DNA of 64,000 bases, from assembly GCF_002113885.1 (NCBI RefSeq), contig NW_018407656.1:659864-723863 (forward strand). The letters run 5' to 3'. Numbering within the stretch: position 1 is the first letter of the stretch; each line of letters starts with the position of its first letter. Source of the DNA: Mizuhopecten yessoensis. Its lineage: Eukaryota. The notes below the pieces were generated by a model. The model was not told the origin of the DNA. It searched no databases and was given only the letters and a program-made list of their open reading frames with translations. The translations under genes were made by a program, and so were the position numbers. Below are positions 6,705-57,482 of this stretch, piece after piece.

Positions 6705-9700
6705 TGGATCAGATATTATATTTTGAGTAAGCAATAATGTGAATTTAATCTGAAAATGTTCGATTTTACGATTTTACTTTTCGGAGAACCGGAGCATCCG
6801 GACTAACGAAATTCCACATGCATGTACCACTGTTAGCAGAAAACATCTGTCTAGATTCTACCAGCTTCAACTTCTATGTGGGAGAGGACATAGTAAAAAA
6901 TCACAGTAGATTATCATTGCTTTTGGATTTCGATGAACCGGAAAAATGATTTAAAAGGTAATCGAACATAGTAAGTTGACACCTTTTCCTTAGTATTGAT
7001 ATTCTTTTATTCGTAACGAATTCTAGGCGTTTTAAGATATGTTCATCATTATATCAAATCCAGCGATAGATTTTAAACGGTGTTTTATGTTGTGTATTGT
7101 TACTTTTTGAATGTTATATATATCTATACTTCACGTTTTTGCCTATTGTCATTGTTGTCATGTAATTGTGAATGTATGACGGGAGAAGGCTGAGATAACT
7201 TGTAATAACTTGTATCAAATCCCTTGTTCAATTGGCAATACAATATGTTTAAAGTAAACTTATTTTAATTATAATTAGATTTTACTGGATCCCATTGATC
7301 CGATAGCATTTCACGTTTAAACTCAATTACATGTATGGTCTATTTATTTGTTTTTCAATATTTGTAATTCTAAACAATTGTAATCAAACATTCGGATTAC
7401 AAAACTACGTGTAATTGGGTTCTAAGATGTATCAATCGGAAAGCTATTATGAGGTTCAAAATCGTTAAATAGCATTTCGTAGTCTAGATTACCTGCTATC
7501 CTTTATCAAAGCTCGCTACCATTAAATACTGCAGTGTCTTCAAATACCTCTTTTGAAACTTGATTTATCGTTTGTAATTAATTTAGTTTAAAGAAGACCA
7601 TTTTCAGTTCCTCTCATCTCTGAAACAGCAAATTAAAAACGAAATCACAACATATTTATCAAACTTTAGCCCAGGTATTACAGACTTTGTTTATTGGGTT
7701 AGACTGAAGGAAGATATTAACAAATCGTTACGTCATACACACAAAAAATGTAATTGACATTCCATAGAAAAACGCCTACTGGGATGGAGTTATGTCGTCA
7801 GTGATAAAGATTTGTAATATTTGAAAGAGAATTCAAATTGCAAAAGAAATGGATTCGATAATAGATATCTCCCGGTTTCTGGAATCTGTTTCGTAAAATG
7901 GGAAATCTACATACGAAAATGATGAGTGTACATTACATTCAAATAATTTGAAAAAAGTTGTGCAAGTAAAATTGAGAATCGTTTTAAATACAATTCTGTT
8001 TTCTCGGTACATTTTAAACAAATTGAAGTTTCATTACTTCAGGTTATCGATCAAACAAAAATTAAATGATTGATTTCGTGTAGAATTTACGTTTTTGAAA
8101 ATCGATTAAAGAAACAGATAACAATGGTGAATATACTCGAAGTTGTGGAGCTAATAACATGAGTTACGGTTCTGTTTTAAAGCTAAGACAACGTAAAAAA
8201 CACGCTGGTATATTGTCTAACAGTGTCAATGTATTCGGTTTCCTATTACCTCGCAAACAAAAGTATCAATTGAAAAGGCAAATACGGTGACTAAATTGGA
8301 ATTCTTCAAATAACTTCGCACGGAATTTCAAATAGAAAATAGAAGGCGGTGATATGCTCTCTTCTGTCAATTATTTACGTCCCGAGAAATATCTGCAACA
8401 ACGGTCATAAAAGCAGCAGTTTGTGTGCCTTTTAATCATGGCCATGAAAGACGGTTCCGCTTCGTTTCAATTTCTTACAAATTTTATTTCTCCCAAAAGA
8501 AATATAAAATTTTAACAATTCAGTTTAAATGCTACAAAGTTTCAATTTCAAACCGCGACAGGACTGTGATACTATCTCGGAAGGCGATTACTATCGCTGT
8601 TTTCTGTTTTAGTTTATTAGCCTCCGTTAATACGGCTATAGCTTTGGATCGTGAAGTCTCGACAGAATGAATTCGTTATTCTTTAAGTGGATGCGTCTGT
8701 TTGGTCGGTCTTTAAGGCTGAAAGCGAGACCGGGGGATGAACAGGAGAACCACGCGCATGTTTCAAGGAAACAAAATATATTCACTACCTGACGTTTTAC
8801 TTGAAATGTATGATTTTCCTATAGCAACACATGTACACATTGCACATTAATGTCATGCTACATTTGTATACTGTCATAATTTATCAATCAATATTTGGCA
8901 CTATTGATGAATTTGGCATTATATTGAGGAAAAGAGACAATGAAACGGGGACCTTGAGATACCTGTACAAATATGTATATATAGGCAGTAAGCGAGGTGG
9001 CAAATGAAACTAGCAGTGTTATAGGTGTCACATTTTCAGAATAATGTGACCGATAGATGTTGCTGGGTGACGTCATGTCCGCCATGACTGTTTCAGTGAC
9101 CACATCGTCAATGGACACAATTACCACGTGACAATAGCTGTTGTGAGAGCTTAAGACTTCAACCACACAAACAGTGTTATTTTTTATTGCTTATTTAGTT
9201 TTTTAGGGCTTTGCGTTCTCAAAGCAGCTAAGGAATATGAATCTAAAGGCGATGACAACGGATGATACGACCACTCAATGACCTTCGTATAGTGATCTCA
9301 CTGAAATATCATATTCCAGGGACGATAACAAATACACTCCATTGGTCACATTATCCGGACAAAGGGGTAACAACCAAAGATACAAATAAATGTGCAGGTA
9401 GGCATGCGCAAACTCCACCGAAAAGAAACAGTCAGTAAAAAAAATAAAAAATAAAAAAAAATAATCGCAAATCTTACTTTAAAAAGAGTAATGTTATGTA
9501 TTTTTCAGTGAAAGTACATTTTCTAATTCCATTCACTTTAAAAAAAATCAGTTTATCTGTCAACAGTTCCATGTAAATAGCATGAACTCATTTGACAATT
9601 ATGTTTAAGGACTACATTCTCCGTTTCCCTTAAGGACCGCCGGAGCTTGTTTAGGGGTTGTTCGCTTAAAAAAATGCTCTATTGTTTTGCCTGTTGTAGA

Positions 9701-20539: not shown

Positions 20540-21075
20540 TTAAAAGTGGAAATATTTGCGTTATGACTGTAAAAATATCGCGTTGAGGACACTTTCGCAT
20601 GAAGACTCTTTTAACAGATCGCGGTGGGGATTTCTTTCGCGTTGGCAATGGTTCATAAATCTATATTTAATATATACATGGATCAATAATCTATAAATTT
20701 ATATATTTGATATATACATGGATCTATAATCTATACATTTATGTTTAATGTATACATGGATCTATAATCTATAAATTTATATTTAATGTATACATGGATC
20801 TATAATCTATACATTTATATTTAATGTATACATGGATCTATAATCTATAAATTTATATTTAATATATACATGGATCTATAATCTATAAATTTATATTTAA
20901 TGTATACTTGGATCTATACTCTATAAATTTATATTTAATATATACATGGATCTATAATCTATAAATTTATATTTAATATATACATGGATCTATAGCCTAT
21001 AAATCTACATTCGCTTGGACATTTTCGCGTTCATTTACTCATTTCCACACTACAAAAAAAACTACTTTTACTGTG
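20540..21075 (+). mobile_element. MITE family A, copy 2, with internal minisatellite expansion
   Basis: taaaagtggaaatatttgcg ... tttcgcgttggcaatggttc [array] tggacattttcgcg ... ttttactg is collinear with 2692-2898. Confidence 0.65.
20655..21005 (+). repeat. 38-bp AT-rich minisatellite, about 9 copies
   Basis: c(a/t)tggatc at 20677, 20717, 20755, 20793, 20831, 20869, 20907, 20945 and 20983. Confidence 0.97.
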
Positions 21076-24470: not shown

Positions 24471-24751
24471 TAGGTTTTTATATAAATTTTTTCATTAATA
24501 AACCAGGGAACTAACCAACGATTTGTTACTTAATTAATGAAGGCCAAGCAATTCTTAACATCATAAAGTAAAAGATCTATTTTAAGCCAATCAGAACGTA
24601 GCAGATTGTTTTCCCCATATGAGACAACCCCAAGAGCAGCTAAAACATTTAAACCCGTGTAAGATGCTCGAGCAGAGTATCCACATTGTATTTAACCGGT
24701 ATACAAAAAAAATGTATCGTATATCAACATTACACCCCCAACTCGCCGACT
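24471..24751 (+). repeat. Direct repeat copy 1 (281 bp), left flank of the LINE insertion
   Basis: Nearly identical to 25395-25674; I noticed 4 substitutions and 1 indel. Confidence 0.95.
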
Positions 24752-25394
24752 TTTTTTGTGGTATTTTACATAATGACTGTATAACACATACAGTAATCCA
24801 TTGTACAAAAACTGAAAGTCTTAGAGACGATCTATGGTGTCTTATAAGTACGGCTTTTGATATAGAACTTGGCGTGTTCTTATCCTCTTTGTCTGATTAT
24901 GATTTAATTCATGTATTACTAGGGGGTAGCCTTCCCCACATATTAAGCTCAACTGATTATGTAACCTTTGTACTGCATAATGCTATTTTTATTGACAAAA
25001 TGTTGCTGTTGTATCAGCGTTAATAATGATATAACACGTACAAACGTAAGTACAATAGCAATGTCTAGCTAATTATTATTTATTTTTGTTCTCTTATTTT
25101 GTGTGTGTTTATGTGTGGGTAAGCCTGAGAAGACCTTGTTGGTAGGGCTTTCCCCAACCCTTGGAAACCTCAGGATTTCCAGGCATTCTAATTATTTTGT
25201 ATGATTTGCTGTTCTTTCTGTATTTACTAAACTAATTCAAGTTTCATTAACTTCTCTCTTCATCTCTGTAGTTAACTGATGTATTTATGTGCATGTAAGT
25301 ATCAATTAATAATATTTGATTTGTATTTTGACTACACTGTATATTTTTGTAACTCTTCAATTTGGAGGAAATAAAGAAATAATAATAATAATAA
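24752..25394 (+). mobile_element. 5'-truncated non-LTR retrotransposon (RTE/RTEX-like): ORF2 C-terminus, 3' UTR and (TAA)n tail
   Basis: Open frame FCGILHNDCITHTVIHC...RDDLW...LLGG ending at 25023, resembling the end of a CCHC zinc-knuckle region. An AT-rich UTR follows, then ggaggaaataaagaa and (taa)n. The clade is inferred. Confidence 0.8.
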
Positions 25395-25674
25395 TAGATT
25401 TTTATATAAATTATTTCATCAATAAACCAGGGAACTAACCAACGATTTGTTACTTAATTAATGAAGGCCAAGCAATTCTTAACATCATAAAGTAAAAGAT
25501 CTATTTTAAGCCAATCAGAACGTAGCAGATTGTTTTCCCCATATGAGACAACCCCGAGAGCAGCTAAAACATTTAAACCCGTGTAAGATGCTCGAGCAGA
25601 GTATCCACATTGTATTTAACCGGTATACAAAAAAATGTATCGTATATCAACATTACACCCCCAACTCGCCGACT
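25395..25674 (+). repeat. Direct repeat copy 2 (280 bp), right flank of the LINE insertion
   Basis: Begins immediately after the (taa)n tail and matches 24471-24751. Confidence 0.95.
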
Positions 25675-27766
25675 CTAAAATACGTTACATCAACACATAG
25701 TCCCTCAACGCAAGCAAGTTATTTACCGGCGATCAAATGACATTTTATCTTCCGTCTCCCGCCCGCGTAACGATGTCTGCTAGAGTTAACCGCTCTTTAT
25801 TGTTTGTCACTTCCGTTGCGCAGAGAGAATGGGATGTCCTCAAAACGAGGACAACATGACTTCCGGAAAGAAGCCTAGGGTCGAAGTGGTCGTTATCGGT
25901 GATAAAGATGGCCAATGGTCAGTAGGAATTCACACCATTCCTCTCAGATACGACCGACCGTCTTCCTGGAATGAGTTCATGTCTGCCCAGTTCATTATAC
26001 TTTATGTTTACGGCTCGTGTGTTACGGTAAACGAATGTGTCTGAGTCTCGGCGCTAGTCTATGTGTGTTTGTGACAGGAACATTATCCCTAGCAGTGTCG
26101 TCTGCTCTGCTACTGTCGTTTTCTGGCTGGTGTCACTTACGCTTGCAGTCGACACAAAGCGGCTAGCTAGGGTGGACTGGCGATTGTGCGGATTTAATAG
26201 CGCATTAAAGAAAATGTTAATGATTTACATTTTTTTGACATAATTGCAATTTCCACCTATCATGTAATGAAATTCCAGACGATCATCCTAACATGAAAAA
26301 TAAATACATGAAACTCGATCACATATTTTTGCGTAAATTTAATTTGCAAAAAAAACCACCAACAATTTTACAAAATTGACCCTTATGAAGCAAATATATG
26401 ATGTGATATGCCGGGGGTTAACACAAATTGGAAATAAATTTCATCTAAATATCTAAAAAAAATATATATTTGCAAAAAATATATATTTGAAATAATGTTT
26501 TTCATCATGTGAATGGTAGAATGCATGCTGCAAATAAATTTGGTTGGAAATACATTAAATAGTTGTTCCAGCCAGAGTAACAAGTATTATAAAAAAACAA
26601 TTTTCGTCGTAATATGATCCTTAAAAAGTGAAGGATCGATATTTCAATTTTAAAGATTTTGTCGAATGTATTTTTCCAAATTAATGGGCAAGCGAGTCTT
26701 ATCGAAAGCATCATTTGCATTGATTTAAAATCGACTTAGAATATCCATAGTTGAATCTAACAAAATATCCTTCCCAAAACATTTCAAAAATAATACATAT
26801 CCCCAAAAGAACTAATTTCTTTGTGTTTAATACTTATTTGAATAATATTAACGTGTAAGGTTAGATATTATGTCACCTGTTTATTTTGTGAAAGTCAAAT
26901 CAATGAAAATACACGCAAATTAGAATTTATTAATATATCTCCAGTCAAAATTTCAGAGAGTATTACCAAGTTATGGAAATTTTTGGAAATTCTTATAAAA
27001 GCACAATTCCTCTTTCAGTTAAATATTTTTCCGGAGAAATTTGCTTTTCAAGACTGTTTAAAAAAAAAATGATGAATCGACTTCCATAAGTTGCATTTCT
27101 TGCTATACCATTTCCTTCGTATTAGTAAATACTGTTGGGAAAGTGACCTGTTCGTGTTTCAACGAGCTTTTGCGGAACATATGGCCGGGAGCTACAACAG
27201 TAATACATATGTATTGAGTTTGCGATTCCATTATTTCAGTCACACCTCGCTTTATTAAGTACAATTGTCATTATCAGATATCCATGTCAATTTCTTCCCG
27301 CATGAAATTGATTCCCGCGGTTGTTAAACCCTGTCAGTCAAACTGCGGTTGGATTCTGATTCATATTCTACTACGCATGCGTATTAACCAATTCGAAGAG
27401 GCGGTCACCGTGATATCACCATATTTACTTCGATTATGGTCAGAGAATGACGAGCTCCAGAGCCGCAAACACTTCGGAGGAAATGGCGGCATATTGTATT
27501 CATTTTTACAAAAACATTCTTTTAAATAACCGCTGACGAAAATAAAGTGAAGTCTGTAGAATGAGTGTTGTTAAATCCATAAAGTTATTTTGTTATTTTT
27601 AATAAATGTTCGGCTTATGGCTTATTCGCTGCTAAAATACGCCCCTTCTCCCCCCGTTTTTGAATTACAATATATCTTATATATGTACCTTTTTTCTACT
27701 GGAATAATTATTTGCAGTATTTAAATTACCCTCGAGTCGTTATATTTTAAGTACATTGTACACTTG

Positions 27767-39501: not shown

Positions 39502-40466
39502 CCCTCCCTCTATACCTCCCCCCACCCTATTCCTCCCGTCTATACCTCCCCCTCCTCTCCCGTCTAACTTCCCCCACGCCCCCACTTCCCCCGTCTATAC
39601 CTCTCCCACCCCTTCCGTCTATACCTCCCCACGCCCCCACCTCCTCCCGTCTATACCTTTCCCATCCCTCCCGTCTATACCTACCCCTGCCCCCAACTCC
39701 TCCCGTCTATACCTCCCTTACCCCTCCCGTCTATACCTCCCCGACCCTCCCATCCATACCTCCCTTACCCCTCCCGTCTATACCCCCACCCGATCTGTCT
39801 ATACCTCCCCCACCTTTCCCGTCTATACCTTCCCACCCCTTCCGTATATACCTCCCTTACCCCTCCCGTCTATACCGCCCCACCCCTCCCGTCTATACCA
39901 CCCTACCCCACGCGTCTTTACCTCCCCCTCCAATTTATACCCTTCCCCTCCCTCTATACCTCCCCCACCCCTCCCGTTTATACCTCACTCCTCCAGTCTA
40001 TACCTCTCCCACCCCTTCCGTCTATACCTCCCCACGCCCCNNNNNNNNNNNNNNNNNNNNNNNNNNNNNNNNNNNNNNNNNNNNNNNNNNNNNNNNNNNN
40101 NNNNNNNNNNNNNNNNNNNNNNNNNNNNNNNNNNNNNNNNNNNNNNNNNNNNNNNNNNNNNNNNNNNNNNNNNNNNNNNNNNNNNNNNNNNNNNNNNNNN
40201 NNNNNNNNNNNNNNNNNNNNNNNNNNNNNNNNNNNNNNNNNNNNNNNNNNNNNNNNNNNNNNNNNNNNNNNNNNNNNNNNNNNNNNNNNNNNNNNNNNNN
40301 NNNNNNNNNNNNNNNNNNNNNCCCTCCCGTTTATACCCAACTCCTCCAGTCTATACCTCCCCCACCCCTCCCGTTTAGAGCACACCCCTCCAGTCTATAC
40401 CTCCCCCACTTTTCCCGTCTATACATCCACACCCCTCCCGTCTATACATCCACACCCCTCCCGTCT
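39502..40466 (+). repeat. C-rich minisatellite (cccctcccgtctatacctccccca-like, ~22-29 bp units) spanning an assembly gap
   Basis: Directly visible on both sides of the N run. Confidence 0.95.
40041..40321. other. Assembly gap (281 N)
   Basis: Run of N characters. Confidence 1.
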
Positions 40467-51099: not shown

Positions 51100-51577
51100 A
51101 CATTGTACCTACTGACCCGTCTACTGAGCCCTTGAACATTGTACCTATTGATCCGTCTACTGAGCCCTTGAACATTGTACCTACTGACCCGTCTACCGAG
51201 CCCTTGCACATTGTACTTACTGACCCGTCTACTGAGCCCTTGGACATTGTACCTACTGACCCGTCTACTGAGCCCTTGAACATTGTACCTATTGATCCGT
51301 CTACTGAGCCCTTGAACATTGTACCTACTGACCCGTCTACCGAGCCCTTGAACACTGTACCTACTTACCCGTCTACTGAGCCCTTGAACATTGTACCTAC
51401 TGACCCGTCTACTTAGCCCTTGAACATTGTACCTTCTTACCCGTCTACCGAGCCCTTGAACACTGTACCTACTTACCCGTCTACTGAGCCCTTGAACATT
51501 GTACCTACTAACCCGTCTACTGAGCCCTTGAACATTGTTCCTACTGACCCGTCTACTGAGCCCTTGAACATTGTACC
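51100..51577 (+). repeat. 36-bp minisatellite (acattgtacctactgacccgtctactgagcccttga), 13.3 copies
   Basis: Directly visible. It is the source of the NIVPTDPSTEPL and MFKGSVDGSVGT ORFs. Confidence 0.98.
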
Positions 51578-57290: not shown

Positions 57291-57482
57291 TGGGTGAACA
57301 CCAGATCAATGTCTTCACGAGGTAGCAAGGTTATATATTGTCACAAAGAGGATGGGTGAATCTCAGATCAATGTCTTCACGAGGTAGCAGGGTTATATAT
57401 TGTCACAAAGAGGATGGGTGAACACCAGATCAATGTCTTCACGAGGTAGCAAGGTTATATATTGTCACAAGGAGTATGGGTG
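57291..57482 (+). repeat. 62-bp tandem repeat, 3.1 copies
   Basis: tgggtgaa units start at 57291, 57353 and 57415 and are almost identical. Confidence 0.97.

Follow-up and report, generated by a model that had tools for sequence, protein, structure and literature searches.

The window analysed here is a 64,000-nucleotide stretch of the Mizuhopecten yessoensis genome (contig NW_018407656.1), in which the 3′ end of a LINE lies between two long direct repeats; all coordinates refer to the forward (+) strand. The repeats at 24471–24751 (281 bp) and 25395–25674 (280 bp) are near-identical, as a preliminary description of this DNA had noted, with four substitutions and one indel in a global alignment (98.2% identity), and the whole stretch 24471–25674 is free of N bases. 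The inserted piece and its open frame were both recognized in that description, although their sizes of 643 bp and 90 codons are corrected here. Family copies align from 24753, so that the LINE piece measures 642 nt (24753–25394) and the open frame comprises 89 codons (24754–25020) followed by a stop. The base at 24752 is a C in one sequencing run (X7) and hence is assigned to the duplication, which shares a 1-nt microhomology (T) with the element; this places the 5′ copy of the host DNA (about 281 bp) at 24471–24752 on the combined evidence of the alignment, the genome search and the runs. The 3′ copy occupies 25395–25675 and agrees from 25406 onward with the empty alleles described below; its initial TA is possibly derived from the tail, and the duplicated unit is thus about 279–282 bp long.

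The insert is the 5′-truncated 3′ end of an element with a full length of about 5.9 kb, assigned below to the Proto2 clade. It consists of the last 89 codons of ORF2 with the stop (24754–25023), the truncation falling within a C-terminal C-x2-C-x9-H-x4-C finger, a 3′ UTR (25024–25379) that terminates with AATAAA at 25370–25375, and a (TAA)5 tail (25380–25394). A frame of 145 codons that bridges the 5′ unit and the insert (24586–25023) was rejected as a chance occurrence, as it needs a base at 24705 that is missing in X7. Elsewhere in the window, minisatellite arrays are found at 20655–21011 (38-bp unit), 39502–40466 (C-rich unit of about 24 bp, including the N gap of the window), 51100–51577 (36-bp unit), and 57291–57482 (62-bp unit).

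Status of the 280-bp unit

A search of the 988-Mb assembly gave exactly two matches to the 280-bp unit, far beyond chance and both at the window locus, and the unit is therefore host DNA of this locus and not a terminal repeat of the element. Among 14 sequencing runs, all in the form of short-read contigs, four (X1, X5, X7, and X11) were aligned to the locus; the tail junction is unread in all four, and positions 25368–25405 were skipped in the comparison. In X1, X5, and X11, which stem from three studies, a single contig joins 24481 to 25406 and skips 924 nt, i.e., one unit plus the insert, which represents an empty allele with a single copy of the unit. A 604-bp contig of X7 runs from 24178 in the left flank across the unit and 30 bases into the element, a filled 5′ junction at the identical base as in the window, although X7 may not be independent of the assembled animal.

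At 24489, 24496, 24632, and 24705, four of the five positions that differ, the 5′ copy in X7 agrees with the 3′ copy in the window, and 24632/25556 is a SNP segregating among empty alleles for which the two copies in the window hold different alleles. The difference between the two copies is therefore probably in part allelic, which makes their roughly 98% identity, previously used to date the event, a poor clock. The insertion is nonetheless young and polymorphic between animals, as had been proposed, and the insert is 99.5% identical to its nearest copy (among the best 40 of 295 assembly candidates).

The repeat is a genuine target-site duplication (TSD), which upholds the earlier interpretation. 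That the unit could instead be part of the element (an LTR, a Penelope-like pLTR, or a 3′ transduction) or an older tandem duplication, as the direct repeats at both ends and nothing more might suggest, has a negligible probability and was rejected, since the unit is found nowhere else in the genome, no terminal repeat travels with the element, every family copy is flanked by its own distinct repeat, and the empty allele holds one unit.

Identity of the element

The longest copy of the family (L034, about 5.9 kb) encodes a 600-aa coiled-coil ORF1 and an intact 1182-aa ORF2; ORF2 is intact also in a second copy (L033). Pfam domains in the L034 ORF2 comprise an APE endonuclease (PF03372, residues 43–252) and a reverse transcriptase (RT; PF00078, residues 591–808), with no other endonuclease domain, and its C-terminus bears the finger inside which the window piece starts. 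APE endonuclease and RT in ORF2, a common 3′ end with a simple-repeat tail, variable 5′ truncation, and the lack of a terminal repeat of its own identify the element as a LINE. Over about 220 residues compared by eye, its RT is letter-identical to the row M.yessoensis_46_LINE in supplementary file 23 of PMC10294476, an element listed in the tree-based table of that paper (Martelossi et al. 2023) under the Proto2 clade of the RTE superfamily, with the RepeatMasker type RTE-X. Through this identity, the element, which the preliminary description had left to be placed in an RT phylogeny, is assigned to Proto2 by way of the published tree, and its 5.9 kb are near the 5.7-kb mean of bivalve Proto2 elements given there. 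Named homologues in a homologue search came from mussels and a limpet, and none of the results bore a clade name.

Related classes fit less well. The strict RTE clade, with elements of about 3–4 kb, one long ORF, at most a tiny ORF1, and a very short 3′ UTR (PMC1291365), does not accommodate a 5.9-kb element with a 600-aa ORF1 and a 3′ UTR of about 350 nt. An ORF2 with only APE and RT in Pfam, together with the Proto2 placement, sets the element apart from Dualen (RandI), and dispersed, unrelated flanks with TSD lengths of 44–712 bp set it apart from R9 and the site-specific R elements.

Residues 767–770 of the L034 ORF2 read QADD where most LINEs have YADD or FADD, a variant present in 31 of the 50 closest homologues and in 10 of the 70 beyond. 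An endonuclease motif at residues 272–274 reads SEH instead of SDH, as in 12 of 120 homologues. A search of ORF2 for a broken endonuclease motif found none; the motifs are all present and look complete, and the protein sequence thus offers no explanation for a missing second nick.

The first 37 nt of L034 (the oriented 5′ end, locus positions 8423–8459) match another high-copy repeat, and two other copies start at position 38; these 37 nt are probably filler captured at the 5′ junction. In three further copies (L102, L108, and L111), the 3′ end is joined to a short segment that derives from a far-upstream region of the element, by internal deletion or a template jump.

Target-site outcomes in two Proto2 families and a CR1-Zenon control

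The insert had 295 candidate matches in the assembly, the best 40 of which scored at 92–100% identity. Up to 10 kb of DNA around the 39 other best hits and 12 further 3′-end loci of this family (family A, M.yessoensis_46_LINE) was passed through one pipeline. This gave 51 entries including the window, with a tandem pair on C596 counted once, and 43 evaluable copies after eight had been excluded (five because their 5′ end coincides with an N gap or the end of a contig, two as members of tandem arrays, and one because it lies in a duplication that includes the element); the copies are best-scoring hits, and the exclusions were chosen after the output had been seen, not blind.

Sixteen of the 43 copies have a long TSD, defined as a direct repeat reaching from the tail to the 5′ junction and consisting of a different sequence at each locus, with lengths of 44, 54, 76, 117, 176, 183, 193, 224, 228, 281, 287, 328, 340, 597, 630, and 712 bp, the 630-bp one accompanied by 43 filler bases. 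One copy has a short TSD of 18 bp, and 26 have none of 9 bp or more. Paralogous empty sites, available for copies that lie within host repeats, contain the duplicated stretch once in the case of two long-TSD copies (L062 and L066), and comparison with such sites revealed target deletions of 19 nt (L044), 12 nt (L048), 13 nt (L050), and 46 nt (L056 and L046), microhomology included; a one-sided flank paralog test on 12 further copies yielded one of these deletions (L046). Long flanking duplications thus recur at other copies, each with its own sequence, but neither a second-strand cleavage about 280 bp away nor the claim that each insertion duplicates host sequence withstood the census, given the 44–712 bp range, the 26 copies without a TSD, and the copies that delete their target. 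A fixed 280-bp stagger was rejected on the same range of lengths.

A second locus, the one with the 712-bp TSD (L070), was compared with X7, X10, X1, and X5. A 90-bp contig of X7 crosses the tail junction but reaches about 28 bases into the element, short of the 31-base threshold, and the depth in X7 is 11.7 on the unit and 6.4–7.8 on the flanks; among the records listed for these four runs, none bridges an empty allele. At positions 1848–1849 of this locus, within the duplicated sequence, X10 carries 507 other bases, which represent an unrelated polymorphic insertion.

A second Proto2 family, which matches M.yessoensis_32_LINE (family B, 58% identical to family A), was represented by 39 of 40 hits retrieved, 35 of them with a 3′ end and 30 evaluable. 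Eight of the 30 have a long TSD, none a short one, and 22 neither. The long TSDs measure 78–376 bp; four strictly abut the element, two lie across an N gap, and the remaining two stop short of the last shared base, by 194 and 1384 nt. Over a length of 601 bp, many copies of family B show 100% identity. Deletions were measured in only 5 of the 48 copies of families A and B with neither outcome, and the remainder may represent blunt joins, large deletions, rearrangement after insertion, or duplications that have been collapsed.

As a control from the same assembly, we used the CR1-Zenon element M.yessoensis_3_LINE (family C; 37 loci retrieved, 31 with a 3′ end, 27 evaluable), for which 15 copies have short TSDs of 9–17 bp, one has a long TSD, and 11 have neither. 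Long TSDs are more frequent in family A without the window (15/42) than in the control (1/27; Fisher p = 0.003), and likewise in family B (8/30; p = 0.027), while short TSDs number 1 in 73 for the two Proto2 families together against 15 in 27 for CR1-Zenon (Fisher p = 1e-9). Long TSDs are therefore an element-specific, family-level trait, because the Proto2 families and CR1-Zenon have opposite outcomes in one germ line, which implicates the element and not the host. The ordinary short TSDs retained in the assembly also indicate that flanks are not duplicated at every LINE.

The only long duplication among the 27 control copies belongs to a full-length, 7.2-kb CR1-Zenon element (L156 on C5537) and spans 226 bp at 96% identity, from which it follows that the host is able to make a long duplication for any LINE. 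Two complex loci were also seen. In L112 (C76625), two family 3′ ends are separated by 971 bp, and behind both lies one and the same flank of 618 bp (93% identity), which reflects either a tandem duplication or a second long-TSD insertion beside the first. On C628, families A and B adjoin, the B copy (L132) lying directly behind the 183-bp TSD of the A copy (L047).

Proposed integration mechanism and its rivals

The upstream copy of the long TSDs begins with C/T-A-T in 14 of 24 cases when scored by a script that mis-parsed several tail variants and in 21 of 24 on inspection by eye, with the site in the window (CAC-TAG) as an exception, and the three short deletion sites end in CATA or TATA. 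The family target can be written Y^AT(A/C/G) and can pair with the (TAA)n tail. The 5′ junctions show 0–6 nt of microhomology or filler. TSD length in families A and B has a median of 218 bp (n = 24), with 19 of the 24 above 100 bp, and longer elements do not have longer TSDs (rho 0.03, n = 16); neither the age nor the length of an element is linked to whether it has a long TSD. The two TSD copies are more alike in younger elements (rho 0.50, p = 0.012, n = 24), but those of the youngest elements are still 1–3.5% apart, as haplotype mixing would give.

In the standard model, a second nick downstream of the first yields a TSD and one upstream a truncation, with clade-specific peaks at 3–15 bp (PMC4245944). 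Proto2 families A and B have no such peak, and their outcomes scatter in both directions. Our main reading, to which we assign a probability of about 0.62, is that the window holds a young, polymorphic Proto2 insertion with a genuine 280-bp TSD, from a family whose insertions, in place of short duplications, bring about long ones or deletions; the likely cause is an endonuclease that nicks the first strand alone and makes no set second nick. The first-strand nick, at Y^AT(A), would fall on the bottom strand at 5′-(T)AT^R, and the primer end would pair with the (UAA)n tail of the RNA, a tail–target pairing that has been described for RTE elements (PMC6007223). To judge from the outcomes, the protein would place no programmed second nick nearby, and after target-primed reverse transcription the 3′ end of the cDNA would join any top-strand end that the host offers, through microhomology of 0–6 nt or a few bases of filler. 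Where the break lies downstream by tens to hundreds of bases and strand-displacement synthesis fills the gap, a long TSD would result, and an upstream break or resection would produce a target deletion. In favour of this reading, human L1 shows the same broad spread of TSD lengths in NER-deficient cells, in which it loses the near second nick, with 57–91% of TSDs exceeding 100 bp against at most 10% in HeLa (PMC5223499).

Three rivals to this reading can be ranked in falling order. The first, which we consider unlikely, accepts the TSDs as real and ascribes them to a programmed distant second nick, with ORF2 staying bound or a second ORF2 being recruited across a DNA loop or nucleosome; it amounts to the second-strand cleavage of the preliminary description, made variable in distance. 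It would accord with a trait that tracks the element and not the host, with the fixed 126-bp TSD of R9 (cited in PMC9977147), and with the 9 of 24 lengths that fall within 155–232 bp, near the nucleosome repeat. However, the lengths range from 44 to 712 bp without a significant period (six periods from 147 to 210 bp, p ≥ 0.07), which leaves a nucleosome periodicity unsupported; the distal ends share no motif by eye; and the same family also generates deletions.

The second rival, which we regard as improbable, has the duplicated stretch copied from the sister chromatid or homologous chromosome when a replication fork or recombinational repair completes an insertion that is only half made, so that the same duplex would receive no second nick. 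The two copies in the window with different alleles of the segregating SNP, and the divergence that persists between the TSD copies of very young elements, are what such copying would leave. Against it stands the 5′ copy in X7, which at four of the five variable positions matches the 3′ copy in the window, so that the difference between the window's copies can stem from the assembly or from later recombination, and the process alone would leave the short TSDs of CR1-Zenon unaccounted for.

According to the third and very improbable rival, the doubled flank is an assembly artefact that arose when a repeat was collapsed and the filled and empty haplotypes of one heterozygous animal were joined around it. 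The assembly is indeed fragmented, with 82,659 contigs and N gaps, the TSD copies differ at about the allelic level, the perfect identity of many family B copies is what gap filling from one contig could give, and none of the runs spans a whole filled allele. However, X7 has the 5′ junction at the same base, the 3′ junctions bear a consistent target motif, CR1-Zenon copies in this very assembly retain short TSDs of the ordinary kind, the similarity of the TSD copies tracks the age of the element, and a junction overlap of 0–6 nt is too small for an assembler join, most junctions also lacking N.

Relation to known elements and significance

The endonuclease of the rotifer element R9 is restriction-like, and long direct repeats have been reported around the C. 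elegans element RTE-1. Like the scallop Proto2 families, R9 has a TSD of over 100 bp as a family trait (126 bp, cited in PMC9977147 and PMC2861651); it is rDNA-specific and has one fixed length, whereas scallop Proto2 is dispersed, APE-type, and variable. Long and variable duplications at the family level are also produced by Dualen-4b_cRei of Chlamydomonas reinhardtii, with more than half of new insertions having TSDs above 50 bp, but the median there is 900 bp compared with 218 bp in scallop Proto2, the data are new mutations and not standing genomic copies, and the suggested cause, two endonucleases (RLE and APE), does not apply to an element with APE only (PMC9977147). Human L1 and zebrafish ZfL2-2 in cultured cells likewise combine a single APE with broad TSD lengths and deletions (PMC5223499, PMC4245944, PMC2666801). 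In these systems, short TSDs are nevertheless the rule, and those above 100 bp, at most 10% in HeLa, are dominant only in NER-deficient cells; in scallop Proto2, a short TSD was found in 1 of 73 copies, in a wild germ line where CR1-Zenon makes them. The RTE clade proper belongs to the same superfamily and has an AT-rich trimer tail that pairs with the target, but its TSDs peak at 10–12 bp and its elements measure 3.2–3.9 kb with at most a tiny ORF1 (PMC1291365, PMC6007223), in contrast to the 5.9 kb, 600-aa ORF1, and C-terminal cysteine-histidine finger of scallop Proto2.

The family itself is thus already catalogued (PMC10294476, whose TSD passages concern SINEs and DNA transposons and do not describe what these LINEs do to their target sites), and Dualen-4b, R9, and cultured-cell L1 and L2 are known to make long TSDs. 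The passages found in the literature searched, a scope outside which lie Repbase Reports and most subscription journals, contain no report of long TSDs for Proto2 or RTE-X, none for C. elegans RTE-1, and no same-genome contrast of TSD outcome between LINE clades. Long TSDs as a Proto2 trait and the contrast between clades within one genome may therefore be new, although Repbase Reports may mention them.

The second-strand cut and the joining of the 5′ end are the least understood step of LINE integration (PMC4245944), and the scallop data indicate that long TSDs need neither two endonucleases, as suggested for Dualen, nor a repair-deficient cell. Since a copy with intact ORF1 and ORF2 exists, along with a second intact ORF2, the mechanism is open to experiment. 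TSD scans of 10–49 bp in 200-bp flanks, as in PMC6007223, miss duplications of this length, and software may label them as LTRs or assembly errors. It is possible, if somewhat short of probable, that Proto2 LINEs, at least in the bivalve QADD lineage, form a natural one-nick class in which a near second cut is missing clade-wide and an insertion always either duplicates tens to hundreds of host bases or causes a deletion. If so, Proto2 would steadily add small duplications and deletions to mollusc genomes, a contribution that has been overlooked, and would offer a natural system for studying what makes the second nick in LINE integration.

At the window locus, the insertion may sit in a promoter and duplicate part of it. 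No gene was identified at the promoter-like stretch 25750–25930, which lies 80–250 bp downstream of the 3′ unit and contains an ATG at about 25908 and several CTTCCG/CCGGAA words, which we take to be ETS-type. The duplicated unit itself contains a CCAAT word, at 24588 and 25512.
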